A DNA stretch of 64,000 nucleotides from Candidatus Zhuqueibacterota bacterium (GCA_034505795.1 JAPDQM010000007.1:1590-65589); one strand, 5' to 3'. Positions 3,333 through 23,601 are shown, counted from the stretch's first letter. The notes: generated from the sequence alone by a model not told the origin. Numbers and translations are program-made.

Positions 3333-5165
3333 TCAAAACGATCGATTGGTTAGCCAGGTTCGTCGAATGAATTGCTGAAAATCGCTTTTGGGTGTGGAAC
3401 TGCTGAGATAGTACCGCTGACTGGCTCGCCCTTTGACTCTGGCCGAAAGCATCAAAAATAATTTATCGCGCTGCACTGAAAAATCGATATAACTGCTAAC
3501 GCCAAGCGTATCGATAATTTGTTCCAAATCACGTGATGAATTTAGCTTGTGATTGGCCAGCGACAGTAACCTATCCCCAACCCTAAGGCCAGCGAAAGCT
3601 AACGGCCCTTTTTCGCTCAAATCCAGAACCTCATTGGTTTCATCGGAGATAACGATATACCCCAAATCAGCTATAGTGTCCGACTGCGAACGAAAGAAAA
3701 TGCCAGCGCTCTGAAATATTGTTTCGATCGGGGGGGGCAGCACACCATCGATGTATTTATCAAAAAATTCCGATACGTCAACGCCGCTCACCGCTTTGAT
3801 GGCTCGTGGCAAGTCCGAGTCTTGATATTCACCGTTATTAAGACCGAACCAATTGTTCATGAACAAAATTACATCATCCAAGGAGCGCTGATTCTTCGAA
3901 AGTTCGCGGATTTGCAAATCAAGCAGCACCCCCACTAAGTGACCTTTAAGCCGAATGAACTGATGCACCCGAGGATCGTTACCGAAAATTAGCGGAAGCT
4001 GGCTTAATGGCGTATTCGAGTATTCGGCATACTGGTTTAAATGATTCATCAAGCGGACGTACTCCTGAATGAACTCATCAGCGGAGATCAAATTCGCTCG
4101 GACCAAATTCAGATGCCCATAGTAATCGCTAACGCCGCTAACAAACCAGTGCCGCTCTATAAGGTCTCTGTTATATGCCTCAGTATTTCCGAAGATTGGA
4201 TAAAAGCGAAAGCCATTCCAGGTTTGAAAAAAATTGCTGGCGACCAGCCGAACGATTTTCAATAAATCATCTCTGGCAGTTTGAACCGGCGCATACACAA
4301 TGCTGCAATTCTCATAGGCTTTGGAAACCAACCGGACGTTGTCGGGATACATTCGAAAGATAAACAAATAAGTGTCAAAAGGAACATCTTTAAAGAGCTG
4401 AAGTTGGTTGGTCATCACCTTATGAGTCAGCACGGACAAAGAGTCGTAATTGAATTTTTTATCACCATCCAATATGATATAGCAAGTACGATTTTGAATA
4501 GTAAAGAAAATATCGGCAAAGGGAGCAATATATAAAGGCCGATTGAGTAGTTGCCGATAGTTATCGGCACGATAAACAAACTGTTGATCGGTCAATGAAA
4601 GCCCGGTAGCCAATTTCCACCGATGTGGAACGCGAACCGATAACACAATTGGCATCTGGTCATATTCACGAACGCACATAAATACAGAAGCACCGTCCAC
4701 CCTGGCAAAGCGTCGACTGAGGCATTCCCCAAGCGCTCGATCTTTCTGGATTTTGATCTTGTAAGAAATAATCACGATGTTACTTTTTTTGGTATTAATC
4801 GACCAGGTATTGGCAGCGGTTTGAGTAATGGCCAGGGTATCGCCATAATCACCAATTGCGCTGATTCTGGTGATGCCGGTCTTAGTAGCGGACTTCTTGC
4901 TTAGCGGATTTAGTTCGGGAATAAAGGCGTAGAGGGATTTTTGCCGATTATTATCAATACTAATGGTGACATTGAAACCATCCCAATTATCTTCATCTAT
5001 TTCTAAATAATACGACAGTTTCTCCTGAGCAGAGACCGGCCTCGCAGCAATTAAGCAGCAAGCGAATGATAGTAGATTGTATGAGAGAAGCCCTGTTGCT
5101 GCTGACCTCAAAAATTTCGATAATTTGCTCAATCCTACCTCCGCCGTCAAAGACTCAACCGACAA
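3333..5165 (-). CDS. M61 (glycyl aminopeptidase)-like protein with C-terminal PDZ domain; zinc ligands degenerate (probable pseudo-peptidase)
   Basis: The segment ..VASNFFQTWNGFRF...HWFVSGVSDYYGHLNLVRANLIS aligns to the M61 signature HEFFHxWN....WFSEGFTSYYGxLLLVRAGLIS. HEXXH is replaced by SNFFQ and the third-ligand Glu by Ser. C-terminal PDZ-like GLRVGDRLLSLANHKL. N-terminal hydrophobic signal/anchor. Confidence 0.6.
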   Translation of the reverse strand: MSVESLTAEVGLSKLSKFLRSAATGLLSYNLLSFACCLIAARPVSAQEKLSYYLEIDEDNWDGFNVTISIDNNRQKSLYAFIPELNPLSKKSATKTGITRISAIGDYGDTLAITQTAANTWSINTKKSNIVIISYKIKIQKDRALGECLSRRFARVDGASVFMCVREYDQMPIVLSVRVPHRWKLATGLSLTDQQFVYRADNYRQLLNRPLYIAPFADIFFTIQNRTCYIILDGDKKFNYDSLSVLTHKVMTNQLQLFKDVPFDTYLFIFRMYPDNVRLVSKAYENCSIVYAPVQTARDDLLKIVRLVASNFFQTWNGFRFYPIFGNTEAYNRDLIERHWFVSGVSDYYGHLNLVRANLISADEFIQEYVRLMNHLNQYAEYSNTPLSQLPLIFGNDPRVHQFIRLKGHLVGVLLDLQIRELSKNQRSLDDVILFMNNWFGLNNGEYQDSDLPRAIKAVSGVDVSEFFDKYIDGVLPPPIETIFQSAGIFFRSQSDTIADLGYIVISDETNEVLDLSEKGPLAFAGLRVGDRLLSLANHKLNSSRDLEQIIDTLGVSSYIDFSVQRDKLFLMLSARVKGRASQRYYLSSSTPKSDFQQFIRRTWLTNRSF

Positions 5166-9188: not shown

Positions 9189-12100
9189 TCATCGAATAAG
9201 CAGCAACTTCTTCTGCAGGTTTAGATCAGACACTCTGAGCTGATAGAAATATACTCCTGACGCCACAGGTTCGCCCTTATCGCCAGTACCGTCCCAGAAT
9301 GCTGTGTAATACCCTTTGGCCTGAAGACCTGCAATCAAAGTTCGCACCTTCTGACCGTTGAGATTAAATATATCCAGTGTCACCTGCTGAAAAGATTCCC
9401 CTGCAATTTGATAATCAATCCGCGTCCAGCGATTGAAGGGGTTGGGATAGTTTTGGGCTAATTTATATTCGGTTGGTACGGGCAGCATAATATGGCCGCC
9501 TGGCTCCATGGTAACAATGGGCTGTGAACTGATCTCGATATTATCAATAAAAACGCCGGTAATCTTCCCCGGTGGCAGCGGCTCGTCGTCACTCACCCAC
9601 CGGAATCGCACTCGACTTAACGTGCCAGCAGCGATATCGGAGAGATCGTAATTATATGGCAACCAATCATTACCCATCAATACCGAATCCAGCGCTCCGC
9701 CGCTTCCGATGAAATCTAATTTCCGCCATTTCAAACCATCAAATACGTCGACATAAAAACCATTCACGCCATAGATAGCCACATTAAACCAGGCCCAGAA
9801 TGTCAGTCGGCTATTGTGACCCAGATAAAAAGCTGGACTTTCAAGCGTGGCGTCGTCATGGGGCAGATAATTGCCTGTGGCTTCGTCACCACAATACCAG
9901 GAATAGCCCCCAGAATAAGGATTTTGGGTTGACAGATGCCAATGATTGGACATTGCGTTGGGTCGATACCATCCTCCTGTCCCGTGTTCAAGATCGTCCT
10001 GGAAGCCAGTTGCTCCGATGGTCAGGTGGAACAACGGCGAGAACAGAAATCCCTCCTCGGTGGTGATGTTCAAACGAAAATCCGGAAACGATGGAATTGG
10101 CGGTTGTAGCGCCTGCACGATGAATGAATCCACAGCCATCTGCCCTGGAGCTATCGTTCCCCAGGCGCTGATTTTGGGATCGATTTGAATTTGGGGATCA
10201 GTGGTAGTGAGCGTCGACCGAACGTTATGAGCACTGGCCAGGCCATTGTTGACCACGCCAATGGTCAAACGGAATTTTTCACCGGGCTCAGGAATCGAAT
10301 TGCCGTTTCCCCATTCCCTGTCGTTGATTTCTTGATGTGAGAGCGAAATTACAGGGGCAGCGTTGGTCAAGGCAAGGGTTTGATTCCAGGCCAGGCCGGA
10401 CTCAGCTAAGATTTGGGCATTCAAATGCAAAACATATCCATTGGGGCATTGACGATCAACGGCGAGGATCAAGACATCCATGCATTCGGTGCTATCATTG
10501 GCAGCAATAGAACCGGCGATAGCGCTGGGATCGATCATGGTAATAAATGAATCGGTTGAAGTGACCGTTACAGTCACTTGATTCGCATCTGCCGCGCCAA
10601 GATTTTTCAATCTTAGCTTGAGGTGAACAGTTTCGCCCGGATTGATCAACCCATCTCCATTCCCTGTGCGATCATCAATGCCAAGATCGGAGCAAATTAC
10701 ATAAGGTGCGCTGGATTGAACTGCAATCGTCTTTTCAACGGGTAAAAAATTAGATGCCGTCACCGTGAGTTCGATTGGTTTTGAAGCATCTGTCACCGAA
10801 ATAGCGAATTGAATCTGCCCTGCGGCATCGGTGCGGCCATATTCATAGATAGTTTCAGCTTGCCTGAGACACACCAGGGCCTCTTCAAGTGGCGAACTGC
10901 GGTGAGTTACTGTGACTGGAATAACGGAATTGCCGATGTTTACCCGGGCGGGTGCTTGAACATTCAGATGGGAGGGAGCGTCCGTCCATACTGGCATTTC
11001 AGGATCACCCAGTAAATTGATTTCATACATGCACCAGCGGTAGACATTCTCTTGCCGGGCAAATGGCACATAATAAGCTTTGGCTAAGGCTAACGCCAGG
11101 CCCAAATTGTGGACCCGCTCTTTGAACAAAAAACGAAAAAACTGAAAGTCAAACCGATCAGAATAGCCATAGCCAGGATTGCCTGGCGAACCCCAGCCAT
11201 AGCGAGAGTTGCCGATAAAAGCCACTCCCCCGCCATTGGGATTATTCACATAATCTTCTGCAATGCAATCGACTTCAAAATTGGCCGGGTAGCAACCGAT
11301 GGAATAGAGAATACCTTGCATGGTACCATTGGTCAATGTCTGCATGTCCGCTCTTCGGAAATAGCCGTCCCCCATTCCCATGACATTGGCGCTGGCATGG
11401 CCATGGTGGTTAATGATATGTTGGCCGGCGTCAATAGCCGTGCGAACCGTGGCGATGGATTCATTGCCCAGGTCTTCATATAGCTTGGTGATCTCATAAA
11501 AATTAGGAGGCAAATATGCCTGTTCAATCATATCTTTGCCGATTCCAGTATTGGTATATGGATTGGCCCACAGGATCTCGGCAGCAAACAGCATCTTGCG
11601 CAAATATCCTTGCGGAGGATTTTTCTCATAAGTCAACACTTTATCAACAAAGACCTTCGCTTCCGCTGCATCTTCGACCGGCGCCCGGCCAACAATGACC
11701 TCAGGAATCATATTAATTTCATCGGCAATTTCGCCGAAAATCTGATCGCCATCATCATTCCAGGAGCCATCCAGATCCGCGTAGTACAGATCGCACGGAA
11801 TTTCGTTCTCCCGACGATCGCCGCCGAACTTGCAATCCATAGCAAAAGCGGTTCTGGCGGGGATAATGTTCACATCGCCTCCCAAAAGCACCCAATACAC
11901 GCCCCAGAGCTTCACTGCCTGGCGGATAAAATTTCGGATTTGTTCTTGCCTGTCTGAGCCTGCAAACTTGGCATAAATGTATTCGGTTGTTACGATAGTT
12001 GCTGGAACGCCTTTTTTGGTTTTCCAATCCAGAAGAGGCTTGAAATTGCTTTCCAGCGAACTGCTGGTAATAATTAAATATTCATATTTCGGAGTTGATT

Positions 12101-12779
12101 CAGATGCTTCATCTTTGGCAAGCGGTTTTTTCATCAGTAAAGAGCCAGCCATGTTTTTTACGAGCTTCGATGCCAGGATAGCAGAGAACTCAGTTTCGCT
12201 GATGGCATTTTGGGTCTGATGGTAACTTTCCTGCGTTGCAATGACTTGAAAGAGGATGTCTGAATAAAAAAACAGCTTTTGTTCTGCGGGATGATATTGC
12301 AGCGGATAAACACGAAGCGCAACAAGTTTGATGGCGCCCAAACGTGCCTCTCCCGCTAATTCGATGACTTGTGCGGGAAATGCGGCTTCGGAGGCATAGA
12401 TGCGCGCATTGGGTGTTGGAACATCGATTGCAGAGCTGTTTTTTGAATGTGCGGAAAGGATTTCTGGCCGAATTGCTGGAAGAATCGAATAATTTCCAGT
12501 CAGCAATTCAGGTTCTACCGCGGTCATTTCGATGTGATCGACGCGTTCATCGACTGGAATGGCCAGGTGAATAATTTGAAACGGTAGTTGTGGCGCTCCT
12601 ACCTGCGACGACAGTTCCAGCCCTTTCATAGTAACCACGTCAAAGTGGTAGCTTTTTGAAAATGCCAAATCGAGCTTATTAAAATGGTGGCTCACACTGA
12701 TATTTCTTGAATTCGAGATTTGAGTGACCATCAGCGTGAAGAACAATGTTTTGCTTATTAGGCAAATTAATTTTTTCAT
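9189..12779 (-). CDS. C25 (gingipain-like) cysteine peptidase with Ig/CARDB-like repeats and T9SS C-terminal sorting domain
   Basis: Signal peptide. YEYLIITSSSLESNFKPLLDWKTKKGVPATIV (C25 N-terminal core), putative catalytic His IINHHGHAS and Cys YSIGCYPANF. C-terminus LAQNYPNPFNRWTRIDYQ... is a Por/T9SS CTD. Confidence 0.7.
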   Translation of the reverse strand: MKKLICLISKTLFFTLMVTQISNSRNISVSHHFNKLDLAFSKSYHFDVVTMKGLELSSQVGAPQLPFQIIHLAIPVDERVDHIEMTAVEPELLTGNYSILPAIRPEILSAHSKNSSAIDVPTPNARIYASEAAFPAQVIELAGEARLGAIKLVALRVYPLQYHPAEQKLFFYSDILFQVIATQESYHQTQNAISETEFSAILASKLVKNMAGSLLMKKPLAKDEASESTPKYEYLIITSSSLESNFKPLLDWKTKKGVPATIVTTEYIYAKFAGSDRQEQIRNFIRQAVKLWGVYWVLLGGDVNIIPARTAFAMDCKFGGDRRENEIPCDLYYADLDGSWNDDGDQIFGEIADEINMIPEVIVGRAPVEDAAEAKVFVDKVLTYEKNPPQGYLRKMLFAAEILWANPYTNTGIGKDMIEQAYLPPNFYEITKLYEDLGNESIATVRTAIDAGQHIINHHGHASANVMGMGDGYFRRADMQTLTNGTMQGILYSIGCYPANFEVDCIAEDYVNNPNGGGVAFIGNSRYGWGSPGNPGYGYSDRFDFQFFRFLFKERVHNLGLALALAKAYYVPFARQENVYRWCMYEINLLGDPEMPVWTDAPSHLNVQAPARVNIGNSVIPVTVTHRSSPLEEALVCLRQAETIYEYGRTDAAGQIQFAISVTDASKPIELTVTASNFLPVEKTIAVQSSAPYVICSDLGIDDRTGNGDGLINPGETVHLKLRLKNLGAADANQVTVTVTSTDSFITMIDPSAIAGSIAANDSTECMDVLILAVDRQCPNGYVLHLNAQILAESGLAWNQTLALTNAAPVISLSHQEINDREWGNGNSIPEPGEKFRLTIGVVNNGLASAHNVRSTLTTTDPQIQIDPKISAWGTIAPGQMAVDSFIVQALQPPIPSFPDFRLNITTEEGFLFSPLFHLTIGATGFQDDLEHGTGGWYRPNAMSNHWHLSTQNPYSGGYSWYCGDEATGNYLPHDDATLESPAFYLGHNSRLTFWAWFNVAIYGVNGFYVDVFDGLKWRKLDFIGSGGALDSVLMGNDWLPYNYDLSDIAAGTLSRVRFRWVSDDEPLPPGKITGVFIDNIEISSQPIVTMEPGGHIMLPVPTEYKLAQNYPNPFNRWTRIDYQIAGESFQQVTLDIFNLNGQKVRTLIAGLQAKGYYTAFWDGTGDKGEPVASGVYFYQLRVSDLNLQKKLLLIR

Positions 12780-12809: not shown

Positions 12810-15176
12810 TCAGGGCAAGTGGATCATTTTTTGGGCCATCATTGTCTTATATGGTTCAAGTAGTCTCAGTCGATAAAAATAGACTCCTGCAGCTACCGCA
12901 TGGCCTTCGTGATCGCGAGCATCCCACATGACCTCATGGCTACCAGGAACTTGAAATACAAGATCGAACGAGCGGATAATTTGCCCAATGGCATTAAAGA
13001 TTTCAAGTTTTGCTGTCGTTGGGGCAGCGACCTCAATTCTTATTTGCGTTTGGCCATTGAATGGATTGGGATAATTTTGCGCCAGCAGAGCCGAGCCCGG
13101 CATGGTTTCGCGGTGTGACATGGCAACGGATGTTAGCGTCAAATCCTGGGTTCCCCCTGCCTTATGATAGCGCTCGGCGAACTCCTGCAAGTACAGATTA
13201 GCAATGAGGGGGCTCTTGATGATCAAAAAATTTTCGTCATTGCTATTTTCAGCCGCATTGCTCCAATTATACGACCCGGTGACCAGCGCTGAGTTGCCTG
13301 AACGGCCATCGCCATCGATGATCAAATATTTATGATGCAGATATTTTGCTTCTTTATCGAGATGCACATCAGCGGGCGGGTTCCAGGGCTGGCTGCCAGT
13401 GCCAATCAAATTATAATACTGGCTACCAGATAAGTCTTCGCCATCAATCACTCCTTTGATCTTAAACTCAGGAACAGTTTTCCATTTTCCATACATGGCA
13501 TTGGCGATTGAGGACTGGTTGAATGTCAACATGCAGAAATACAACGCGTGCTGTGCTTGCTCGATAGCAGCTAACAAAGCCTCCTGACCATGATCCGAGG
13601 GGCTCATATATTGTAGTACTTCGACACCGTTGATATTAAAACGGTGCGGCGTATTCTCAGTCTTGCGATAACCGAAGCGAGATTTGGCAGGATCAGGTGC
13701 GTCACGGTCACTGCCCCACATTTCATTAAACTCGATCGTATAGCATTCTGCCAGGGCTTGATCCTGGATTTCGATGACATTTTCGGCATTATACAATCGG
13801 GCGGATTCGGTGGCATTATATGAGCCGGTCCAGACCCAGTCGTCAGCAGCCGAGGTGGTGTCGCGATGATCGACAATCATGAATTTATTGTGCATTGCGG
13901 CATTACCGTTGTTGTCGCCAAAACGATCATTAATGATGGGCACGTTGGCATTTTTGAGGAATTGAACGGCATCGCTGTCGCCAGGTCGCTGGGAATCGTA
14001 ATCATAGATAACCCGAACTTTCACCCCGCGCTGAAATGCGCCTACCAATAGGCCTGCGGCTTCATCCAAAAAATAGAAACAGAAGTCGATCGAATACCTG
14101 GCCCCTTCGATACGCGCACCGAGCTTATTCAGTAGATTCGCCTTTTCGGCGTTGACACCAAACTGAGCATAACCTGGATCCACCGACTGATTAAAATAGA
14201 CATTCATTTTGCCGGTAGATGATGGGTTCGAGGCACTCATGACAATGCGATCCGCCGAATATTGATAATTGCCATTTGTGCCGGCTCCGACCCTGACATG
14301 ATACAGGGTTGCCGGCCATAATTGGGCCAAATGTACCAGATGGTTTTTCACTGATTCCTGTACGACAATGGTATCGATTTCATAATTTGAGGTTTTGCCA
14401 TAAATGACAATGGAATTCGTGGCGCTCTGAGTTTGCCATGTTAGGTCCATCGAGTATGGCAAAATATTTTTTTCGACCGGTCCAGAAACGATATCTAAAA
14501 CTGAGTTGTCGATGACATCGGCTTTGAATCGAGGCAGCAGTTGGTAGCCCTGGGTGTAAGGACTTTCGGGATCGTATTGCTGAATCACACCGATGACATC
14601 GAAGCGAGCGGCCGGCGCCGAGGTATTGCTCAAGTCGGTATCTTTGTCAATTCGAATTTCACAGGAACCCGTAGCATCGGTCAGAATAAAATTACTGCCA
14701 GCCCCAGAAACCGTCCATTTGCTGGTGTTGACAGCCACGTTGTTGATGCGAACCAATTGTCCCTCCAGCTTTTCGACACCATTGGCCCCCTCAGTGGCCA
14801 CATCCAAACAGGTAATGAGCTTTGGCACAACAGATGGAGCTCTGGGCACGCGAAGCAAAATTGTGACATTTTTTAATTCTGTCAATCCACTATACTGAGT
14901 CACGGTGCCAGAGATTTTAACCGAATCACCAATATTTACTTTAGAAGCGAAGTTTGCATCATAGATGGCTACTCCGCCGGTGCGATCCTGGATCGAGCCG
15001 GTAATGCCAAACTGATTGCTGACGGTAACTTCGCCAACGATGGTGACGGTCTGATTCAACAAGATTGGAACGCCCTGGGCGTCATTTTGATGAAGAGTAG
15101 CGATGTCGATAACTTGAGCCACCGCGGAGTTAACTAGAAAAATTAAGCCAAGAAGGATGCCATTTTTTTTCAACAT
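12810..15176 (-). CDS. secreted phospholipase D-superfamily protein (two HKD motifs; nuclease/PLD-like) with T9SS C-terminal domain
   Basis: HKD motif 1 MHNKFMIVDH...GSYNATESA. HKD motif 2 LHHKYLIIDGDG...GSYNWSNAAE. Start set at ATG 15176 (MLKKNGILLGLIFLVNSAVAQ signal peptide, SD GAGGA). C-terminus LAQNYPNPFNGQTQIRIE is a T9SS CTD. Confidence 0.75.
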   Translation of the reverse strand: MLKKNGILLGLIFLVNSAVAQVIDIATLHQNDAQGVPILLNQTVTIVGEVTVSNQFGITGSIQDRTGGVAIYDANFASKVNIGDSVKISGTVTQYSGLTELKNVTILLRVPRAPSVVPKLITCLDVATEGANGVEKLEGQLVRINNVAVNTSKWTVSGAGSNFILTDATGSCEIRIDKDTDLSNTSAPAARFDVIGVIQQYDPESPYTQGYQLLPRFKADVIDNSVLDIVSGPVEKNILPYSMDLTWQTQSATNSIVIYGKTSNYEIDTIVVQESVKNHLVHLAQLWPATLYHVRVGAGTNGNYQYSADRIVMSASNPSSTGKMNVYFNQSVDPGYAQFGVNAEKANLLNKLGARIEGARYSIDFCFYFLDEAAGLLVGAFQRGVKVRVIYDYDSQRPGDSDAVQFLKNANVPIINDRFGDNNGNAAMHNKFMIVDHRDTTSAADDWVWTGSYNATESARLYNAENVIEIQDQALAECYTIEFNEMWGSDRDAPDPAKSRFGYRKTENTPHRFNINGVEVLQYMSPSDHGQEALLAAIEQAQHALYFCMLTFNQSSIANAMYGKWKTVPEFKIKGVIDGEDLSGSQYYNLIGTGSQPWNPPADVHLDKEAKYLHHKYLIIDGDGRSGNSALVTGSYNWSNAAENSNDENFLIIKSPLIANLYLQEFAERYHKAGGTQDLTLTSVAMSHRETMPGSALLAQNYPNPFNGQTQIRIEVAAPTTAKLEIFNAIGQIIRSFDLVFQVPGSHEVMWDARDHEGHAVAAGVYFYRLRLLEPYKTMMAQKMIHLP

Positions 15177-15420
15177 AATCCTCAATGTTATGTTCAAGGC
15201 GCACATTAGTTCTGGAAGCGCACTGCGAATTGCAGTCTCTCGGGGAAATTTTTGTTGCCCTAAATATAAACATAAATAATTTTTCAGTCAAGTACATTAT
15301 CTGAAAAATTGCTTGAATTTTAATCCAGCAAGTGGTAAATTGAACTCCAGTAATGCTCATTGAGTATATAAAAATGACCAATTGCACGATGATTGGCAGG
15401 GCACAACTTTGAGGCGATTT

Positions 15421-18354
15421 GTGAAGCGATTGATTATAAAACTAATGGGTTTGATGCTGGTGTGCCTAAGTTCCATCGGCGTCGTTCACGGCCAATACTA
15501 CTTTGGCCGCAATAAGGTGCAGTACAACAATTTCACCTGGTATGTGTTAAAGACGGAACATTTTGATATCTATTTCTATCCGGAAATGCGCGAATTGGCA
15601 GAAATCGGGGCTGCTTCAGCGGAAGAAAGCTACCTGTTTCTGCAAAACAAATTCGACCACAGTATTTCGCAGCGTATTCCGTTGATCTTCTATTCCAATC
15701 ATGCGCATTTTCAGCAGACCAATACTATTCCATACCTTCTTCCAGAAGGCGTGGGCGGTTTTTTTGAATTTATTAAAGGTCGGGTAGTGGTGCCATCGAA
15801 TGGCTCCATTCCGGATTTCAAACGGGTGATTCGACACGAATTGGTGCATGTATTTACCCACAGCAAACATTATCAGATTTTAAGAGACCACCGCAAGACG
15901 CATTTCCCTTCCTTGCCGCTATGGTTTATCGAGGGATTGGCTGAATTTTGGTCGCAAGGCTGGAACGATGAGGCCGAAATGTTTATCAAAGACGCAGTGC
16001 TGAACGGCTATCTCGTACCGCTGGAGGATATGTATCAAATTTATGGCACGTTTTTGATGTACAAAGAAGGGCAAGCGATCTTCAAATACATCGAGGATAC
16101 TTTTGGTGAACATAAAATCGTCCAAATGATCGAAAATAGCTGGAAGTCCGACAATTTTTCAGATGTGATGAAGCTGACCATCGAATTGGATTACAAGGAA
16201 TTCGATCGGGCCTGGCTCTATCATTTGAAAAAAGAGCATTATCCGCTTCTGGCTGAGAATGATTTTCCAGAGATGGTTGCGCGGCAAATCACGTTTCAAG
16301 GAATCAATACCAAGCCAGCATTTTATCGACAGGAGGGCAAAGCGAGCCTGGTTTTTGTTTCCAATCGAACCGGCTACTCAGAGATCTATCGTTCGCCTAT
16401 TCCGGCTCAAAAACTGGAAAAAGAAAAATCGGTGGAAGCCCTGATCAAAGGCGAACGCAGCAATGACTTTGAGGCCTTTCATATTTTGAATAGCAAAATC
16501 GACGTGAATGCCAGCGGCATTTTGGCCTTTATATCCAAAAGCGGCGAAAGCGATCTCATTTATTTATATGATTTGAACGACAAAATCATAACCAGGAAAC
16601 TGAAATTTGATGAGCTGGTTACCCTTTACTCCCCCGCCTGGTCGCCAGATGGCAAACGAATCGCTTTCACGGGCATCAACTTTGCAGGCAAAAGTGATCT
16701 CTACGTGGTTGATGTTGAAACAGACCATTTGCAGCGCTTGACCAATGATTTCTTTGATGACCGGGATCCAGCCTGGGGGACTGATGGCCAATTCATCTAC
16801 TTTAGCTCGGATCGAACCAACTCTGACCAGGGTAGCTTTTACAATATTTTTGTGCTAAATATTTCGACGGGTGAAATTGCCTATGTCACCAATGGCTTTC
16901 ACAATGATTTTACTCCGGCAATTTCTCCTGGCGACCGATACCTGGCGTTTACATCGGATCGCGATGGCGCGTTCAATATCTGGTTGCTGGAAAATCCATC
17001 GGCAGCGGGATCATCTTATCTTGCCAGTCAGCAATGGTCGGCTGCAACTGCGATGGCCGCGCCGCCCATGCCAGTTTATTCGCTGAGCAATCATGCGCTT
17101 CAGGCACGAAAAATTACCAATTTTACCACTGGCGCGTATGATCCAGAATGGACCGATAGCGATCAGCTTCTTTTTACTGCGTTTGAGAAATTTTCATTTC
17201 AGATTCAATTGTTGGATGAAGTGAGTCGTCGCTCTGACAGCGCTGTGGTTGTTCAACGGGATTCATTGGAAGTAAAACGCCCTCTTGATATGAGCCCCAA
17301 AATCGTTGCGCCATCGGCGGTCAGCACGGTAAAATACAAACCCAAATTCAATCTCGATGTCGCCCAAAGCCAGGTGATGCAGGATCCAATTTTTGGCGTT
17401 TCGGGTGGCGCACAGTTAGCCATGAGCGATATGCTGGGCAATTATCAGTATCATTTTTTGATTTTTAATAACGCACAATCTCGCGATGAGTTCTTCGACA
17501 GCTTCAATATCGCTGTCTCGCGGCTCGACCTGTCGCGTCGCACCAATTATGCTGTGGGCTTGTATCATTTCGCCGGCCGCTATTACAATTGGTACGAGGG
17601 ATTTTTTTATGAACGCCGCTATGGTGGCTTTGCCTCGGTTAGCTATCCCCTATCGGTTTTTCAACGCATCGAAGCCTCGGTGAATTTTCGGCATTCATAC
17701 AAAGAATGGTACGGATTTGACAACTCCCGCAAGGCGCTGCTGGCCTCTAATTTCATCGGTTATGTGAAGGATAATTCGCTCTGGGGCGCTTCGGGACCTG
17801 TTGATGGTGAGCGGGTGAATATCACGCTCGGCAACACGACGGATGTTCAGCATTCCAATGTAAATTTTTATACCATCATTTTTGATGCCCGAAAATATTT
17901 TCGCCTCTCGAATCGAGTGACCTATGCCGTGCGCGCCATGACCCGGTACAATCATGGCAAAGAGGCATTGCCATTTTTTATGGGTGGCAGTTGGGATTTG
18001 CGAGGCTATCGACGCTGGTCGCTTTGGGGTAATAAAATTTTCCTCATCAACCACGAGCTGAGATTTCCGTTTATTGATCGCTTTATCATCAATTTTCCCT
18101 TTGGCGGCATGGGCTTCAATGCCATTCGTGGAGCGACTTTTTTGGACCTGGGGAATGCCTGGAATAACAAGTTTGAGAATATCCTGGGCAGCTTTGGTTT
18201 TGGCGTTCGCTGGCGTCTGGGAGGATTCCTGGTACTGCGGTTGGATTTCGGTAAGAAATTCGCTTTTCATGAAACCCGCAGCTTGATCCATCCCGGGAAA
18301 TTTGACTTGAGCCAAGGGGTCTTCACACAATTCTTTTTTGGCTGGGATTATTAG
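15421..18354 (+). CDS. Omp85-superfamily outer-membrane beta-barrel fused to an N-terminal HEXXH metallopeptidase-like domain and PD40/TolB-like beta-propeller (no POTRA recognised)
   Basis: HEXXH IRHELVHVFTH followed by a downstream Glu in WFIEGLAEFW (gluzincin-like). PD40 repeats (YSPAWSPDGKRIAFTG, SDLYVVDVETD, FTPAISPGDRYLAFTSDRDG). C-terminal ~350 aa barrel with Omp85 loop-6 motif DLRGYRRWS and aromatic C-terminus ..FFFGWDY. Start set at GTG 15421, giving signal peptide VKRLIIKLMGLMLVCLSSIGVVHG. The ATG at 15382 or 15445 is possible. Confidence 0.65.
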   Translation: MKRLIIKLMGLMLVCLSSIGVVHGQYYFGRNKVQYNNFTWYVLKTEHFDIYFYPEMRELAEIGAASAEESYLFLQNKFDHSISQRIPLIFYSNHAHFQQTNTIPYLLPEGVGGFFEFIKGRVVVPSNGSIPDFKRVIRHELVHVFTHSKHYQILRDHRKTHFPSLPLWFIEGLAEFWSQGWNDEAEMFIKDAVLNGYLVPLEDMYQIYGTFLMYKEGQAIFKYIEDTFGEHKIVQMIENSWKSDNFSDVMKLTIELDYKEFDRAWLYHLKKEHYPLLAENDFPEMVARQITFQGINTKPAFYRQEGKASLVFVSNRTGYSEIYRSPIPAQKLEKEKSVEALIKGERSNDFEAFHILNSKIDVNASGILAFISKSGESDLIYLYDLNDKIITRKLKFDELVTLYSPAWSPDGKRIAFTGINFAGKSDLYVVDVETDHLQRLTNDFFDDRDPAWGTDGQFIYFSSDRTNSDQGSFYNIFVLNISTGEIAYVTNGFHNDFTPAISPGDRYLAFTSDRDGAFNIWLLENPSAAGSSYLASQQWSAATAMAAPPMPVYSLSNHALQARKITNFTTGAYDPEWTDSDQLLFTAFEKFSFQIQLLDEVSRRSDSAVVVQRDSLEVKRPLDMSPKIVAPSAVSTVKYKPKFNLDVAQSQVMQDPIFGVSGGAQLAMSDMLGNYQYHFLIFNNAQSRDEFFDSFNIAVSRLDLSRRTNYAVGLYHFAGRYYNWYEGFFYERRYGGFASVSYPLSVFQRIEASVNFRHSYKEWYGFDNSRKALLASNFIGYVKDNSLWGASGPVDGERVNITLGNTTDVQHSNVNFYTIIFDARKYFRLSNRVTYAVRAMTRYNHGKEALPFFMGGSWDLRGYRRWSLWGNKIFLINHELRFPFIDRFIINFPFGGMGFNAIRGATFLDLGNAWNNKFENILGSFGFGVRWRLGGFLVLRLDFGKKFAFHETRSLIHPGKFDLSQGVFTQFFFGWDY

Positions 18355-18466
18355 CGTCAGCTCACTATTCAACAAAATTCCAATAGCGTATGGCACCATT
18401 CTCTGATTCGAATCGCACTGCAATGCCAGTGCATTTTATTTCCAATGGCAAAATAATGAGGAAAGC

Positions 18467-19603
18467 GTGTTTTTGAGATACCTAAAATTTAGCCTACTAA
18501 GCTTCATTATCCTGATGAGTTGCGCCAGAATTCGCCTGCGACCGGGAACATCGCTTGCCGAACCAATTCCCAATTGGCTCATGGCGGGTGGCAATCCAGC
18601 GAGAACCAATTCTTACGCTGGTGATATTTCATTACCACTCAAACTGAAATGGCGATATAGCGCAACTTCGGCCATCGGAAAAACGCTATTGGCCGTTGAC
18701 GGCGTACTGTATTTTACCACACTGGATGGTCGGCTGTATGCATTGGATATTCGTACCGGCAAAAAAATAGGCCACATAAAGACTGACCACGAAGCCACAG
18801 CAACTTATCTTGACAGCAGCTTAATTATTGCCCGACGCTATGGCGACGAGACATTGTTTCGATATGATCTAAAATCTGGCACGTATCAGTGGAAAATCGA
18901 TGCCGGGGATATTGCGTCGGAGCCGCTGATTCTGGACCAGCGCATTTTCATCACCGCCCTTTATAAGCATGTCGATCAGTATAATCCGGAACGAGGGGCC
19001 CGCATCTGGCAAACCAAACTGCCCAATCAAATTCAATCCTCACCAGCGGCGCATCAGAACAAGATTGTTTTTGGCTGTGATGACGGATTTGTGTATGCGG
19101 TTGATAAAAGCACCGGCAATGTTGTATGGAAATTCAAAACCAACGCCAGCGTCCAGGCGACTCCTGCTATTTGGGATACTGTTGTTTATATTGGTTCTCG
19201 CAATGGCATATTTTATGCGTTAAGCCTAAATGATGGCCATGAACTTTGGAGGTATAACGCGACAGGGCTAATTCTCCATGGGGTTGCGGTCAACGCCAGG
19301 CAGGTTATTTTTGGTACCACCGATTCCAAGCTTCACTGCCTGGAACGGCTCACCGGTAGAGAGCTGTGGACTTTTTTAGCCAAAAGCGTGATCAGCACTC
19401 CGCCATTAATTAGCCAGGATAAAGTTTTTGTGGGCTCGCTGGATCACCACTATTATGCCCTAGATCTGGCAACCGGCAAGGAGTTGTGGAAGTTCAAAAC
19501 CAAAGGCCGCGTTCGAACGCAGCCAATTATTTGGGACAAATATCTCATTGGTGCGTCTGAGAATAACTACCTGTATGTTTTTTCCAGCGAGGAGGACTTT
19601 TAA
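18467..19603 (+). CDS. PQQ-repeat beta-propeller lipoprotein (BamB-like)
   Basis: GTG start with GAGGAAA SD. Lipoprotein signal ...IILMSCA. Repeated PQQ-type blades (DGRLYALDIRTGKK, DGFVYAVDKSTGNVVW, NGIFYALSLNDGHELW, HHYYALDLATGKELW). Confidence 0.7.
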   Translation: MFLRYLKFSLLSFIILMSCARIRLRPGTSLAEPIPNWLMAGGNPARTNSYAGDISLPLKLKWRYSATSAIGKTLLAVDGVLYFTTLDGRLYALDIRTGKKIGHIKTDHEATATYLDSSLIIARRYGDETLFRYDLKSGTYQWKIDAGDIASEPLILDQRIFITALYKHVDQYNPERGARIWQTKLPNQIQSSPAAHQNKIVFGCDDGFVYAVDKSTGNVVWKFKTNASVQATPAIWDTVVYIGSRNGIFYALSLNDGHELWRYNATGLILHGVAVNARQVIFGTTDSKLHCLERLTGRELWTFLAKSVISTPPLISQDKVFVGSLDHHYYALDLATGKELWKFKTKGRVRTQPIIWDKYLIGASENNYLYVFSSEEDF

Positions 19604-19605
19604 AT

Positions 19606-20406
19606 TTGACGCTTAAATGGCGCCTCATGCTGAGCATTTTTTATATGCCACTGCTGGTTTTGCTTCCAGCGTTGCTTCAAGGGCAAGAAGTTAGCTATCT
19701 CAAGGTAGAAACCGATTCTACTGGAATTGTCATATTATGTGATGGCAAAATATTGGGGCCTACGCCATTGCCCGTTGTTAATTTGGTGGCTGGAGAGCAC
19801 CAGATTGTTGCCTTGAATCCAAAACGATTTTTATGGGGAAACCCAGATTGGTCCCGGCAGCTTACTTTTCCACCTGCTGAGACGTTGGTTGTGGCTCCCA
19901 GGTTCCAAAAGCAGGTGTTCATCCAAACTGAGCCTTTTGGTGCGGATGTCTATATCAACGATGAATGGCATGGAACCACGCCCTTAATTATGCTGCTCGA
20001 TGGGATTAACCGTCAGCAGCTCATGTTTAAAAAAGATGGTTATGAAACCCAACTGCTGCAATTCGATCCTGTTCAATCCAATTATGTAAAACTTCAATTG
20101 ATTAGAAAAAACGCATATTTCGAAAAAATCAATGCTAAATCATCTCAACGAACAGCTCAGCTTCGCCATAGGCGACTAACATATGGCTTATGGGGGTTGT
20201 CGATAGTGACCGGATTGGCCACGGTGTACTTTAAAGATCAGGCAGACGAAAAATACCGGAGATACCTGCAAGCTGGGTCGTTTAAAGAAATGAGCAGTTA
20301 TTTTAATGATGCCAGACGGTTCGATCGCTATTCCAATATTTCTCTTGGCGCGGTGCAAGGTTGCTTCGTGCTTTCGTTCTATTTTTTGATTAAATCGGTA
20401 GATTGA
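19606..20406 (+). CDS. PEGA-domain membrane protein
   Basis: TTG start 3 nt after the PQQ stop with GAGGAGG SD. Two PEGA-like beta-sandwich repeats (VILCDGKILGPTPL, ADVYINDEWHGTTPL). C-terminal TM helix. Confidence 0.5.
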   Translation: MTLKWRLMLSIFYMPLLVLLPALLQGQEVSYLKVETDSTGIVILCDGKILGPTPLPVVNLVAGEHQIVALNPKRFLWGNPDWSRQLTFPPAETLVVAPRFQKQVFIQTEPFGADVYINDEWHGTTPLIMLLDGINRQQLMFKKDGYETQLLQFDPVQSNYVKLQLIRKNAYFEKINAKSSQRTAQLRHRRLTYGLWGLSIVTGLATVYFKDQADEKYRRYLQAGSFKEMSSYFNDARRFDRYSNISLGAVQGCFVLSFYFLIKSVD

Positions 20407-20919
20407 AAATAATAGAATTTCGAGCATAGCCTCCATAAAATGCCGAGACACTCCCTTCGATGTTAACACCAATAATGATAAATGTCAGACTGAAGATTTA
20501 ATCTCCAATTAACAACCTCAAATATCATATTGGTTGAAACTACAAAAATAATTCATGAATTCCAAATTGTGTTTTTATTTTATCGAATCACCAAAGCTTG
20601 CTTTGCCTTTTCTTCGCCACCGGTATTTTTGCCACTTAGAGAAACAAATCCGATACCACTTCCATGCCCTTCTGGATTTGCATGCAATAAGTTATGCGAA
20701 GCAACCGACTGCAAAATTAAAAGCACCAAATTTTTTTCTTGATTTTTAGCAATGATTTTCTTAACATTGAATTTAAATTTATCTTTCATTTTAAAAATTT
20801 ATTGATTATATTTGAGTCCTTGGTTTTGAAATCTGCTATCTGAATAAATTCAAGTTATGTTTTGAATATCGTCTCGTTTTGTTTTGCTGATGGGGACGCG
20901 ATGTCTTGAAGAGGAGTTG

Positions 20920-23601
20920 ATGAGCACCATGCAAGTAAAAGAATTGGCCAAAATCTACAATCCCAAACAAGTCGAAGAAAAATGGTACCAACATTGGTTG
21001 GAACAAAATTACTTTCATGCTGAGGTAAATCCGAAAAAAAAGGCCTACTCCATCGTCATTCCGCCGCCAAATGTAACCGATGTGCTGCACATGGGACATG
21101 CCTATAATAATACGATTCAGGATATCCTGATTCGTTATCATCGCATGCTGGGGGACGAAGCCCTCTGGCTGCCGGGAACGGATCATGCCGGAATTGCGAC
21201 GCAGAATGTAGTGGAGCGGCATTTGAAGAAGACCGAAAAATTGACCCGTCACCAATTGGGGCGAGACGAATTTGTTCGCCGCGTATGGCAATGGAAAGAA
21301 AAATATGGTAGCGTGATTATCGAACAATTGAAAAAGCTGGGTTGCTCCTGCGATTGGGAACGCGAGCGCTTCACAATGGATCCCGGCTTATCAAAAACCG
21401 TGATTGAGGTCTTCTGTCGGCTGTACGAGAAGGGACTGATTTATCGCGGACGTTATATCATCAATTGGTGTCCCCGCTGTAGCACAGCGCTCTCGGACGA
21501 GGAGGCTATTCATCGTGATGAGCAAGGTAAATTGTGGTACATCCGATACCCGTTGAAAGATAGCGATCAATTTATTACAGTGGCGACTACTCGGCCTGAA
21601 ACCATGCTGGGCGATGTGGCAGTTGCGGTGAATCCCAATGATCCTCGTTTCAAACACCTGATCGGTAAGATGGCGGTTCTGCCGGTGCTCCAGCGAGAAA
21701 TTCCGATTATTGCCGACGAGATCGTAGACGCCAATTTTGGCACCGGTGCCGTGAAAGTCACGCCAGCTCACGATCCCAATGATTTTGAAATTGGCCTGCG
21801 CCATCAATTGCGACCGATCAATGTCATGAACGAAGATGGCACGATGAATGAAGAGGCTGGCAAATACAATGGCTACGAACGCTTTGCGTGTCGGACGGAG
21901 TTGGTCAAGGAGCTGGAAGCCGCAGGATTGCTGGAGAAAATTGAAAATCACCAGCACGCGGTCGCCCATTGCCAGCGCTGCGATACCGTTATTGAGCCCT
22001 ATTTGTCGGCACAATGGTTCGTAAAAATCAAACCGCTGGCCGAACCCGCGCTGCAAGCGGTGCTCGATGGCCGCATCAAATTTCATCCCGAAAAATGGGT
22101 CAAAGTCTATGCCAATTGGATTGAGAATATTCGGGATTGGTGTATTTCACGGCAGTTATGGTGGGGGCATCGCATTCCGGTCTATTATTGTCAGGATTGT
22201 CAGGAGATGATGGTTCGGCGAGAAGTACCGGCAACGTGCCATAAATGCGGCGGCACGAGCATCGTGCAGGATGAAGATGTGCTGGATACCTGGTTTTCAT
22301 CCTGGCTGTGGCCGTTTTCAACCATGAATTGGCCTGAAGATGCGCCCGAACTGAAATATTTTTATCCCACCAATGCCCTGGTGACGGCGCCAGATATTAT
22401 TTTTTTCTGGGTGGCGCGGATGATCATGGCCGGGCTGGAATTTATGGGCGATGTCCCCTTTCGGGATGTGTATTTCAATGGCTTGATTCGGGATGCGCAG
22501 GGCCGAAAAATGAGCAAGACCCTGGGGAACGGCATTGATCCATTAGCGATGGTGGAAAAGTACAGCGCCGATGCAGTGCGATTTTCGCTGCTAATGCTAA
22601 CCTCTGAGGGCCAGGATATCAATCTGGCAGAGTCCAACTTCGAGATTGGCCGAAATTTTTCCAATAAATTGTGGAATGCATTCCGATTTCTGGCTTTGAG
22701 TTTCTCGCCAGAGGAGATTCCGCATTTGTTGCAGGATCAGGATTATCTGCGCCATCCGGAGCGACTGCAATTAGCTGACCGCTGGATTTTGAGTCGGCTG
22801 CACCAAACCATTGCCAAAGTGACCGTCGCGCTGGATGAATTCCATTTTAACGAAGCTGTGGATAATCTGTACTCGTTCTTCTGGCGGGAGTATTGCGATT
22901 GGTATCTCGAGTTCATCAAGCCTCGGCTGTATGGCGATGATGCCTTAGCCAGGGATTTTGCGCTTTCCATTGGCATTTATGTGTTGCGCCACCTGATGAA
23001 GCTGCTGCATCCGTTTATTCCCTTTATTACTGAGGAAATCTGGCAGAGCGTAAAATTACCGCAGGAAACAGATTTAATTGTCTCGGATTGGCCAAAAGCT
23101 GATAAAATCTATTTCAATGATGCTGCAGAACAGGATTTAATGCTGATTCAGCAGGTCATCGGCGCTATCCGCAACATCCGAGGAGAAATGAATGTGCCGC
23201 CTCAAAAACAAGCCAACGTGCGCATTCGTAGCAGCAACGAACGACAACTGCAACTCATTCGATCCAACGAAGTTTATATCACTACGCTGGCCAGACTGGC
23301 CGGTCTGGAGGTTGGGAGAGATTTATCAAGGCCCAAATTTGCCGCTAGCGCGGTCGTGGCTGATATCGAAATCTTCATGCCCCTGGAAGGGCTCATCGAT
23401 TTTGAAGTGGAGAAGAAACGATTATCAAAAGAAATCGCACGGCTGGAGCAACAAATTCAAGCAACTCAAAAAAAATTGATCAACCCGGATTTCATTGCCA
23501 GGGCGCCAAGCGAAGTCATCGATCGGGAAAAACAAAAGGTCAATGATTTTCAAGCCAGCCTGGCAAAACTGCAGACGAATCTGCAGAGCATCGAAAGCTG
23601 A
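20920..23601 (+). CDS. valS: valine--tRNA ligase
   Basis: HIGH-type motif PPPNVTDVLHMGHAYN, KMSKTLGN (KMSKS), editing and C-terminal coiled-coil regions typical of ValRS. Start moved to the MSTMQVKEL ATG. Confidence 0.9.
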   Translation: MSTMQVKELAKIYNPKQVEEKWYQHWLEQNYFHAEVNPKKKAYSIVIPPPNVTDVLHMGHAYNNTIQDILIRYHRMLGDEALWLPGTDHAGIATQNVVERHLKKTEKLTRHQLGRDEFVRRVWQWKEKYGSVIIEQLKKLGCSCDWERERFTMDPGLSKTVIEVFCRLYEKGLIYRGRYIINWCPRCSTALSDEEAIHRDEQGKLWYIRYPLKDSDQFITVATTRPETMLGDVAVAVNPNDPRFKHLIGKMAVLPVLQREIPIIADEIVDANFGTGAVKVTPAHDPNDFEIGLRHQLRPINVMNEDGTMNEEAGKYNGYERFACRTELVKELEAAGLLEKIENHQHAVAHCQRCDTVIEPYLSAQWFVKIKPLAEPALQAVLDGRIKFHPEKWVKVYANWIENIRDWCISRQLWWGHRIPVYYCQDCQEMMVRREVPATCHKCGGTSIVQDEDVLDTWFSSWLWPFSTMNWPEDAPELKYFYPTNALVTAPDIIFFWVARMIMAGLEFMGDVPFRDVYFNGLIRDAQGRKMSKTLGNGIDPLAMVEKYSADAVRFSLLMLTSEGQDINLAESNFEIGRNFSNKLWNAFRFLALSFSPEEIPHLLQDQDYLRHPERLQLADRWILSRLHQTIAKVTVALDEFHFNEAVDNLYSFFWREYCDWYLEFIKPRLYGDDALARDFALSIGIYVLRHLMKLLHPFIPFITEEIWQSVKLPQETDLIVSDWPKADKIYFNDAAEQDLMLIQQVIGAIRNIRGEMNVPPQKQANVRIRSSNERQLQLIRSNEVYITTLARLAGLEVGRDLSRPKFAASAVVADIEIFMPLEGLIDFEVEKKRLSKEIARLEQQIQATQKKLINPDFIARAPSEVIDREKQKVNDFQASLAKLQTNLQSIES

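Follow-up and report, generated by a model that had tools for sequence, protein, structure and literature searches.

A probable further member of the WD40-like Omp85 subfamily, combining peptidase, propeller and barrel domains, in a conserved three-gene module

The window analyzed here, a stretch of 64,000 nucleotides from a Candidatus Zhuqueibacterota bacterium, encodes a 977-residue protein in which a zinc-peptidase domain, a TolB-type propeller and an Omp85-type barrel follow one another. On its architecture and family assignment, this fusion protein is very probably a further member of the "WD40-like Omp85" subfamily defined by Heinz and Lithgow in 2014 (Front Microbiol 5:370, PMC4104836). 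Its gene and those of a PQQ-repeat lipoprotein and a PEGA-domain protein form a conserved, phylum-spanning gene module. The best explanation overall, held with slightly better than even confidence, is that the protein is one of these catalogued WD40-like proteins acting in envelope proteolysis.

The fusion gene occupies positions 15421..18354, stop codon included, on the plus strand, as do all features described below. The open reading frame (15382/15421..18354) is a real gene and not a chance occurrence, since it has more than 7,000 database relatives, the best 120 of which are all full length at 55-88% identity. The likely start codon is the GTG at 15421, because a GAGG Shine-Dalgarno sequence lies 6 nt upstream, a canonical signal peptide follows and the start position is shared by homologs. 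The Sec signal peptide (residues 1-24, 15421..15492), VKRLIIKLMGLMLVCLSSIGVVHG, is predicted from a reading of the sequence to be cleaved between VHG and Q25, where homologs have A followed by Q; the same reading found no lipobox in it. The mature amino terminus, QYYFGRNKVQY (residues 25-35, 15493..15525), consists of near-invariant columns, with Q25, F28, G29, N31, K32 and Y35 invariant or near-invariant in alignments of the relatives, and is modeled with pLDDT <50 in both models. The AF2 model of the whole protein is of moderate confidence (pLDDT 76, pTM 0.60).

Residues ~38-290 (15532..16290) form a clan MA (gluzincin) zinc-peptidase domain, to which the catalytic domains of M9 collagenase and of the M30 and M1 families are closest; fold and profile comparison assigns the HEXXH segment a thermolysin-like gluzincin fold. 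The zinc-binding and catalytic motif is HELVH (residues 139-143, 15835..15849), and its H139, E140 and H143 are invariant in alignments of 48 sequences and of 24 sequences (29-60% identity). It is followed by the helix PLWFIEGLAEF (residues 166-176, 15916..15948), which aligns to the W..EGIAEY segment of Vibrio collagenase and has P166, W168, E171 and G172 invariant, the last two down to 29% identity in the alignment of 24 relatives. Glu171, located 28 residues past His143, is the probable third zinc ligand; its spacing equals the His-to-Glu spacing in M9 (28, from H527 and E555 of ColG). Pfam Peptidase_MA_2 scores 22.9 bits on the window protein, under its cut-off of 32.4, and matches 23 of the 24 relatives at E <= 0.01 (best 1.6e-16). 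Model confidence is low at residues 95-120, directly before the active-site helix.

The PD40/TolB-type beta-propeller, of about six blades (residues ~292-600, 16294..17220), is supported by PD40 and TolB profiles, Foldseek and the strand pattern, and contains a low-complexity insertion specific to the window protein (residues 525-562, 16993..17106). The PD40 repeats are found by Pfam at E 3e-22, solved TolB structures in the PDB are matched at 1e-20 and Foldseek reaches TolB at 4.6e-12; TolB is, in fact, the strongest similarity of the whole protein. The TolB profile TIGR02800 matches at 4.6e-32 and 111.5 bits, far under its 343-bit cut-off, and the match covers only profile positions 205-353, which correspond to the propeller, leaving the amino-terminal domain of TolB absent. 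An identification as TolB was, therefore, rejected on both the missed equivalog cut-off and the absent domain. Between propeller and barrel lies a poorly conserved, low-confidence linker (residues 601-637, 17221..17331); residues 622-662 are modeled at pLDDT <50 with a single short helix. Pfam detected no POTRA family, whether in the window protein at E <= 0.1 or, at E <= 0.01, in any of the 24 relatives, and the linker is not a POTRA domain since it is too short and has the wrong secondary structure.

The carboxy-terminal part (residues 638-977, 17332..18351) is an Omp85-type 16-strand beta-barrel. Foldseek aligns it to BamA barrels at 5e-8 over 385-400 columns, with a TM of ~0.5 for a model of moderate quality, and the family profile finds BamA (6e-8), TamA (1e-5) and 9ccg (1.9e-9) in the PDB. 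PF01103 is matched by 19 of the 24 relatives (best 1.4e-19) and by the window protein not at all at E <= 0.1; NCBIfam Omp85_fam gives the latter 36.4 bits, under a cut-off of 200. Because the window protein by itself falls below the curated cut-offs, the peptidase and Omp85 assignments are both based on family-level profiles and fold matches. Fifteen strands are confident in the AF2 model (residues 664-975), and the putative sixteenth (beta1, residues ~638-652) is assigned on conservation alone, the model placing a low-confidence helix at 646-653. Two motifs of Omp85 proteins are (V/I)RG(Y/F) at the tip of loop 6 and (F/G)xDxG on strand 13 (motif definitions from PMC4490367). The loop-6 lid motif is present as LRGY (residues 860-863, 17998..18009), with R861 at least 90% conserved across the 24 relatives, although LRLY replaces it in a few close relatives. 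The inner-wall lock motif is FLDLG on strand 13 (residues 907-911, 18139..18153), which aligns to FADAG of 9ccg; F907 does not vary in the same 24 sequences, and conservation of D909 is at least 90%. The protein ends in the aromatic sequence ...QFFFGWDY. Across 29-88% identity, the residues of the catalytic site and of the lid-lock show no or almost no variation, so that enzyme and barrel are both under selection. The preliminary description of this DNA had proposed an Omp85 barrel with loop-6 and terminal hallmarks rather than a porin, a gluzincin peptidase around the HEXXH segment, a TolB-type PD40 propeller in the middle and no POTRA domain before the barrel, and all of these readings are borne out.

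That description also knew of no characterized protein with this domain order. No member has indeed been characterized experimentally, and we found no functional study of any WD40-like Omp85 protein in the literature; the implied novelty, however, does not hold. The architecture was already catalogued in 2014 (PMC4104836), and a 2024 paper (PMC11358297) restated it as "WD40 and peptidase domains"; within its bacterial group it is common. The family comprises 1,327 clusters at 50% identity, and the PLWFIEGLAEF motif, used alone as a query, retrieves at least 544 relatives from species genomes that span phyla of the FCB group. Loci of the relatives include those of Caldithrix, Ignavibacteria, Melioribacteraceae, Rhodothermales and Gemmatimonadota.

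Downstream of the fusion gene, 18467..19603 encodes a PQQ-repeat (BamB-family) beta-propeller lipoprotein of 378 residues, with the lipobox ILMS before its lipid-bearing Cys and a GTG start preceded by a GAGGA Shine-Dalgarno sequence. It matches PQQ_2 above the cut-off (8.8e-41, 140.5 bits) and Beta-prop_ACSF4 (4.6e-62), and scores 164.7 bits against the BamB model TIGR03300 (cut-off 285.2) and 113.8 against PRK11138 (cut-off 423). The earlier label "BamB-like" is thus apt at the level of the PQQ_2/BamB family, but the NCBIfam BamB cut-off is missed and orthology is not established. BamB docks on BamA via POTRA3; as the fusion protein lacks this domain, the PQQ partner must dock differently. 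A lipobox is found in 44 of 67 orthologs, although their ORF calls are over-long. The residues after the Cys are basic (C-A/S-G-I/L-R-...), whereas the surface-export signal of Bacteroidota lipoproteins is acidic. The third gene (19606..20406) encodes a PEGA-domain protein of 266 residues, consisting of a signal or anchor sequence, two PEGA domains (E 1.2e-11) and a carboxy-terminal hydrophobic pair; this last part, a hairpin of two membrane-helix-like segments, is the best conserved.

The two downstream genes had previously been linked to the fusion gene from this one locus, and the linkage proves to be conserved across phyla. The PQQ gene lies directly downstream of the fusion gene in 65 of 74 related loci, with a median projected gap of 20 nt and frequent overlaps, and in 44 non-redundant loci an iterated profile search finds the PEGA gene following the PQQ gene as the third. 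In the window, a weak terminator-like hairpin lies within the first gap, which measures 112 nt, and the second gap is 2 nt, not 3 nt as first reported. Given this synteny, all three genes are likely to be co-transcribed. We found no earlier description of the module, and the accessible text of PMC4104836 does not mention it. Its flanks vary between loci, and no conserved candidate client gene adjoins it. One relative has a LysM gene, as well as PEGA domains, in its vicinity. In the host, a C25 peptidase adjoins, and secreted proteases carry type IX sorting domains.

The fusion protein is most likely an endopeptidase that is anchored in the outer membrane, faces the periplasm, is gated by its propeller and works on envelope proteins together with its module partners, a function whose topology and substrate we infer; for the role in periplasmic proteolysis taken separately, our confidence is a little short of even. 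The barrel would reside in the outer membrane with the peptidase and propeller in the periplasm, the arrangement of every Omp85 protein of known structure. The propeller would admit only polypeptides that are unfolded or extended to the active site, in the way that a propeller limits substrate access in peptidases of the tricorn and S9 types. The enzyme, the PQQ lipoprotein and the PEGA protein may then degrade or trim proteins of the envelope on the inner side of the outer membrane, the favored candidate substrates being outer-membrane proteins that the Omp85 barrel has captured in an unassembled or stalled state. BepA and BAM set a precedent for an Omp85 machine served by a zinc peptidase (PMC8423444 and PMC13478230). 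If this is true, the fusion protein would match the quality-control pairing of BAM and BepA in covalently joined form.

By analogy with type Vd proteins, as the preliminary description suggested, the barrel might instead thread the peptidase-propeller passenger out to the cell surface, to be tethered or released there as a self-exporting, surface-displayed protease digesting external proteins. PlpD is likewise an Omp85-type barrel fused to an amino-terminal enzyme passenger (PMC4104836), a collagenase-like fold is typical of secreted enzymes, and the linker is flexible and poorly conserved. We nevertheless regard self-export as unlikely and its topology as less likely than a periplasmic one: the POTRA domain that PlpD keeps is missing, the passenger runs to ~600 residues with a closed propeller included, the linker offers no conserved helix or strand able to fill the pore, and a barrel whose lid-lock is intact should, like those of BamA and TamA, be closed at rest. 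The partners, a lipoprotein with basic residues after its Cys and a membrane-helix-like PEGA protein, also fit a periplasmic assembly better, and, because type IX secretion serves the surface and secreted proteases of the host through their sorting domains, no Omp85 export route is needed for them. Improbable to a similar degree is an insertase or translocase that would assemble or export specific clients, as BamA, TamA and TpsB do, with a built-in maturation peptidase that takes off a pro-segment or trims the clients in transit and the PQQ lipoprotein as a BamB-like scaffold. The retention of both Omp85 signature motifs, needless for a mere anchor, and the genetic linkage to a BamB-family lipoprotein argue for it; the variable flanks without a conserved client gene and the absence of a POTRA domain for substrate reception argue against it. 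This reading overlaps with envelope proteolysis as proposed above and differs only in making the proteolysis constructive rather than destructive.

More doubtful still is a Tol-Pal-type tethering or cell-wall enzyme, in which the propeller would bind a Pal-like or peptidoglycan-associated partner, the peptidase would cut peptidoglycan stem peptides or lipoprotein tethers and the barrel would only anchor. The leading similarity to TolB suggests such a role, as do the PEGA domains and the LysM gene near one relative, and a TolB-Pal connection was raised by Heinz and Lithgow (PMC4104836). However, the shortfall against the TolB equivalog (111.5 versus 343 bits) and the loss of the TolB amino-terminal domain weaken the comparison, the collagenase/M1-like fold is none of the known peptidoglycan peptidase folds, and conservation of the lid-lock speaks against a passive anchor. 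A purely structural protein, with an HExxH domain that has lost catalysis and serves as a scaffold, is very improbable; the sub-threshold Peptidase_MA_2 score and the low-confidence segment before the active-site helix would be compatible with it, but the invariance of H139, E140, H143, E171 and G172 to 29% identity is the pattern of an active enzyme.

Several known systems share parts of this architecture. With M9 collagenase, M30 lugdulysin and M1 aminopeptidase the fusion protein has in common the gluzincin fold, the HExxH and, within a W..EG.AE motif, the Glu that the helix after it carries, but identity is just 9-16%. The activator domain of M9 collagenase and the amino- and carboxy-terminal domains of M1 are absent, and, in place of a GxMEN exopeptidase motif, a conserved GVGGF(F/T)E occupies the equivalent position. 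The six-blade PD40 propeller is shared with TolB, and the tricorn propellers PF26549/PF26550 are matched in all listed homologs (precomputed Pfam), although tricorn and S9 enzymes have a serine peptidase catalytic domain and the fusion protein a metallopeptidase. BamA and TamA share the 16-strand barrel, the loop-6 RG(Y/F), the strand-13 FxDxG and the aromatic carboxy terminus, as well as a genetic partner belonging to the BamB propeller family; they carry POTRA domains where the fusion protein has an enzyme and a propeller, and it scores far under their equivalog cut-offs (30.4 versus 297 bits and 25.6 versus 625, respectively). PlpD (type Vd) also joins an amino-terminal enzyme to an Omp85-type barrel, but its passenger, which reaches the surface, is a patatin lipase and it has one POTRA domain, whereas a Pfam search found neither patatin nor POTRA in the fusion protein. 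The favored functional analogy would be with BepA of Escherichia coli, a zinc metallopeptidase on the periplasmic side that serves outer-membrane protein quality control; BepA is a separate, soluble M48 protein with a TPR domain, whereas the peptidase here is M9/M1/M30-like, propeller-gated and fused to a barrel.

The closest system is the WD40-like Omp85 subfamily itself (PMC4104836), which has the same three-part order of peptidase, TolB-like PD40 propeller and barrel. Table S3 of that study gives BamA/TamA, TolB and aminopeptidase/collagenase templates for ~95 members: the Phyre templates are 4K3B/4C00 for the barrel, 2W8B/2IVZ for the propeller and 1Z5H, 4KXD, 4AR1, 4AR9, 3QNF and 4FGM for the amino-terminal domain, and our searches recovered 4ar1/4ar9/4ar8, 3qnf, 1z5h/1z1w, 4fgm, 2w8b and 4k3b. 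The Pfam content, PF01103 with PF07676 repeats, is also the same, and the taxa in common include Caldithrix, Ignavibacterium, Melioribacter, Rhodothermus, Salinibacter, Gemmatimonas and Bacteroidetes. Identical architecture and overlapping taxa suggest kinship with the members catalogued under UniProt accessions, such as H1XQ58 of Caldithrix abyssi, and the fusion protein does not differ from the subfamily in kind.

The protein encoded at 15421..18354 (+) combines a signal peptide, a zinc-peptidase domain, a PD40/TolB-type propeller and an Omp85 barrel, an architecture and family assignment that we regard as very probable. In the protein itself the propeller is readily recognized (PD40 repeats, 3e-22; TolB-type propeller, 4.6e-32; Pfam and NCBIfam), and the signals for the other two domains are sub-threshold: Peptidase_MA_2 scores 22.9 bits against a Pfam cut-off of 32.4, and the NCBIfam models Omp85_fam and BamA score 36.4 against 200 and 30.4 against 297, respectively. 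The peptidase and barrel were therefore tested at the family level and by fold. Among 24 relatives at 29-60% identity, scanned for Pfam domains, PD40 and Peptidase_MA_2 each occur in 23 (best Peptidase_MA_2 match, 1.6e-16) and Omp85 (PF01103) in 19 (best, 1.4e-19); none of the 24 matched a POTRA family. When solved structures were searched with a profile built from the last 378 residues, it recovered BamA (6e-8), TamA (1e-5) and the Omp85 protein 9ccg (1.9e-9), and no other barrel family. The equivalent search of the PDB with a profile of the N-terminal domain returned nothing significant (the best match was a collagenase unit, E 0.11, and the others were chance matches to nuclear receptors), so the peptidase assignment was made by fold comparison instead.

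The AlphaFold2 model of the whole fusion protein is of moderate confidence (pLDDT 76, pTM 0.60), and its matches in fold searches include TolB at 4.6e-12 and, across 385-400 aligned columns, BamA barrels at about 5e-8. Fifteen barrel strands are present in the model; the 16th, beta1, is placed at residues of about 638-652 by sequence conservation only, where the model has a low-confidence helix (646-653). The segment that joins the propeller to the barrel is modeled as one short helix plus disorder, and the beta-alpha-alpha-beta-beta unit is absent. One propeller blade carries a low-complexity insertion rich in Ala, Ser and Pro (residues 525-562; 16993-17106), which is poorly conserved or gapped among relatives and modeled with very low confidence. 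The preliminary description had read the protein as an Omp85 barrel joined to a HEXXH peptidase in place of POTRA domains, and each part of that reading is borne out by the profile, fold and family-level searches. A non-Omp85 barrel and a non-peptidase, helical HEXXH domain were both looked for, and neither was seen.

The catalytic site and the Omp85 lid lock are both strictly conserved. None of the 24 diverse relatives departs from HELVH (139-143) or from E171, which lies within PLWFIEGLAEF, and this contradicts a reading of the protein as a scaffold with an inactive HExxH domain. The lid lock is made jointly by two Omp85 signatures (Maier et al. 2015, PMC4490367): loop 6 has (V/I)RG(Y/F) at its tip, and strand 13 has (F/G)xDxG. 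The fusion protein carries both (LRGY, 860-863; FLDLG, 907-911). In the alignment of relatives F907 is invariant, and R861 and D909 are conserved in at least 90%. The protein ends in FFFGWDY, and an aromatic last residue is found family-wide. Because the catalytic and lid-lock residues are conserved, the enzyme and the barrel both look functional, as judged from sequence. The mature amino terminus, QYYFGRNKVQY (residues 25-35; 15493-15525), is nearly invariant in relatives down to 29% identity and has pLDDT below 50 in both structure models; rather than belonging to the peptidase fold, this segment may dock as a strand or act as an autoinhibitory plug.

The fusion protein belongs to a large family. 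A search of 1.84 billion cluster representatives (50% identity clusters) identified 1,327 relatives at E <= 1e-30; the best 150 of these are all below 1e-100, and most of them have 900-1,100 residues and are matched from the N terminus through the propeller. The motif PLW[FY]xEG[LIM]AE, counted with one genome per species, retrieves at least 544 relatives from KSB1, Calditrichota, Ignavibacteria, Bacteroidota, Rhodothermales, Zixibacteria, Latescibacterota, Marinimicrobia and Gemmatimonadota. In public records these proteins are variously named 'BamA/TamA family outer membrane protein', 'PD40 domain-containing protein', 'peptidase MA family metallohydrolase' or 'hypothetical'.

The domain order had been thought to be new, and this is not the case. 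Among the ten bacterial Omp85/TpsB subfamilies of Heinz and Lithgow (2014, PMC4104836) is one termed 'WD40-like'; Table S2 of that paper catalogs architectures that pair PF01103 with PF07676, and its Table S3 gives the best Phyre templates per part for about 95 members, namely 4K3B and 4C00 for the barrel, 2W8B and 2IVZ for the propeller, and 1Z5H, 4KXD, 4AR1, 4AR9, 3QNF and 4FGM as the 'best aminopeptidase hit'. Cultured members listed there include Rhodothermus marinus, Melioribacter roseus, Ignavibacterium album, Cytophaga hutchinsonii and Anaeromyxobacter. Our fold searches returned the same structures or families, and a 2024 paper (PMC11358297) again describes the subfamily as having 'divergent WD40 and peptidase domains'. 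The architecture is thus documented in Table S3 and PMC11358297, and the protein described here is one more member, its place in the WD40-like subfamily resting on architecture, templates and taxa. Beyond the 2014 classification and papers that cite it, our literature search turned up no functional study of this architecture, and no experimental work on any member. For the window, the practical outcome is the annotation of the fusion gene and its two module partners rather than a discovery.

What our analysis can add to the known subfamily is a three-gene module. The fusion gene most likely starts at GTG 15421 and encodes 977 residues, since GAGG lies 6 nt upstream, the start yields a canonical signal peptide ending in VHG|Q, and homologs share the start position. 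The possibility that the product is a lipoprotein was considered and rejected, as its MLVC sequence has Val at -1 and homologs carry A|Q signal-peptidase-I sites. Downstream on the same strand are a gene for a BamB-family PQQ-propeller lipoprotein (18467-19603; 378 aa; lipobox ILMS|C; GTG start preceded by a GAGGA ribosome-binding site) and a gene for a PEGA-domain protein (19606-20406; 266 aa; GGAGGA upstream). The PEGA gene begins 2 nt, and not 3 nt as previously stated, past the PQQ stop codon. An antisense ORF of 242 aa (17695-18423 (-)) within the barrel-coding region is most likely a chance ORF opposite a conserved gene.

The gap between the fusion and PQQ genes is 112 nt and includes a weak terminator-like hairpin (18415-18432 (+); 6-bp stem, T-rich tail), although the number of such sites is at the chance level: a scan of 15000-21000 found 6 terminators versus 6.8 in shuffled sequence. 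Predicted sigma-70 promoters in the same region are likewise no more numerous than chance would give (16 versus 11.7±3.3 in shuffled sequence), sigma-70 being a type that probably does not apply to the host phylum. These scans favor neither the presence nor the absence of co-transcription of the fusion gene with the PQQ and PEGA genes, to which synteny points.

The gene linkage itself, also proposed in the preliminary description, is widely retained. Two contigs, from KSB1 and Calditrichota, have the fusion, PQQ-propeller and PEGA genes in this order with different flanks. In a survey of 82 non-redundant related loci, 74 had enough downstream sequence to judge, and a homolog of the PQQ protein is encoded directly downstream on the same strand in 65 of them; the projected gap has a median of 20 nt, with overlap in many pairs. 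A lipobox is present in most PQQ orthologs, and its Cys is typically followed by A/S-G-I/L-R. By iterated profile search, 44 non-redundant loci encode the PEGA gene product behind the PQQ gene. Conservation in the PEGA protein is highest not in its PEGA domains but in a C-terminal pair of hydrophobic segments (residues about 192-263; 20179-20394) joined by a basic loop containing RRxDRYS, a part that resembles a membrane anchor of the helical-hairpin type. In several phyla tblastn detects no other part of the protein (related loci L026, L048, L049 and L076). The nine loci that lack the PQQ neighbor (L032, L034, L035, L036, L038, L039, L042, L043 and L045, from Ignavibacteria and Bacteroidota) probably form a paralogous branch within the family; no alternative conserved neighbor was obvious in them.

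The remainder of the window gives some context. Type IX C-terminal sorting domains end three proteins, a gingipain-like C25 peptidase (9189-12779 (-)), a PLD-like/purple-acid-phosphatase-N protein (12810-15206 (-)) and a 990-aa PKD/Big_9 protein (42983-45955 (+)), which identifies the host as a member of the FCB group with type IX export of its surface proteins. The last of these ORFs was considered as a paralog of the fusion protein and rejected as an unrelated type IX substrate. No canonical bamA was found among the scanned ORFs of the window that are 150 aa or longer. The left end holds further peptidase genes (C1-like cysteine peptidase, 695-1855 (-); M61 glycyl aminopeptidase-like, 3333-5165 (-)). 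Tandem TMEM260-like protein O-mannosyltransferase paralogs of about 900 aa each (29982-32711 and 32708-35410 (+), overlapping by 4 nt) adjoin glycosyltransferase, methyltransferase and LPG-synthase-like genes, and a glycan-utilization cluster (50036-59992 (+)) encodes a GH3 with a PA14 insert, GH97, a right-handed beta-helix protein, a sodium:solute symporter and a pectinesterase.

Outer-membrane biogenesis centers on Omp85 proteins, whose mechanisms are, to our knowledge, known only for POTRA-bearing members (BamA, TamA, TpsB and PlpD). Starting from the directly observed domain architecture, active-site and lid-lock conservation and gene linkage, we favor a role in which the protein would degrade or trim envelope proteins at the outer membrane, a tentative model to which we give a little less than an even chance. 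The N-terminal domains would face the periplasm, because strand 1 has a periplasmic N terminus in all solved Omp85 proteins that we know of, and because the lipoprotein, with its basic post-Cys residues, and the helically anchored PEGA protein could meet them there. The propeller, which carries precomputed tricorn-propeller Pfam matches, may, like the propellers of tricorn and S9 peptidases, admit only unfolded chains to the peptidase, and the most attractive substrates would be unassembled beta-barrel precursors recognized at the Omp85 barrel. Self-export of the N-terminal 600 residues to the surface, as suggested earlier by analogy with type Vd secretion, is made less likely by the lack of a POTRA domain, the large passenger with its closed fold, the unconserved linker and the nature of the two partners, as well as by the host's own type IX signals on neighboring proteases. 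Less probable alternatives to the proteolytic model are a dedicated insertase or translocase whose peptidase matures its clients, which overlaps that model, and a Tol-Pal-like or cell-wall role.

In a more speculative and rather unlikely form of the proteolytic model, the three proteins would make up a self-contained outer-membrane machine for disposal or maturation, in which the functions of BamA, BamB and BepA are combined. Polypeptides that bear a beta-signal or have stalled would be caught at the seam of the POTRA-less barrel and passed on, via the propeller, to the zinc endopeptidase, both fused to the barrel, with the PQQ lipoprotein as scaffold, the PEGA protein as an anchor to the inner membrane or cell wall, and the conserved N terminus as a possible autoinhibitory plug or docking strand. 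If true, this would be a new Omp85 mode, proteolytic instead of insertional.

Bacteria of the FCB group carry the peptidase-propeller subfamily in abundance, as its more than a thousand clusters at 50% identity show. Its strictly conserved, intact catalytic and lid-lock residues, and its travel in a three-gene module with a BamB-family lipoprotein and a PEGA membrane protein, make its long-standing question of function experimentally approachable. Residue conservation and gene linkage together lead to a concrete hypothesis that names the partners to co-purify, that is, a fused counterpart of BAM-BepA quality control; relative to BepA at BAM, in what PMC8423444 and PMC13478230 report of it, the fusion protein would be a covalent analogue.
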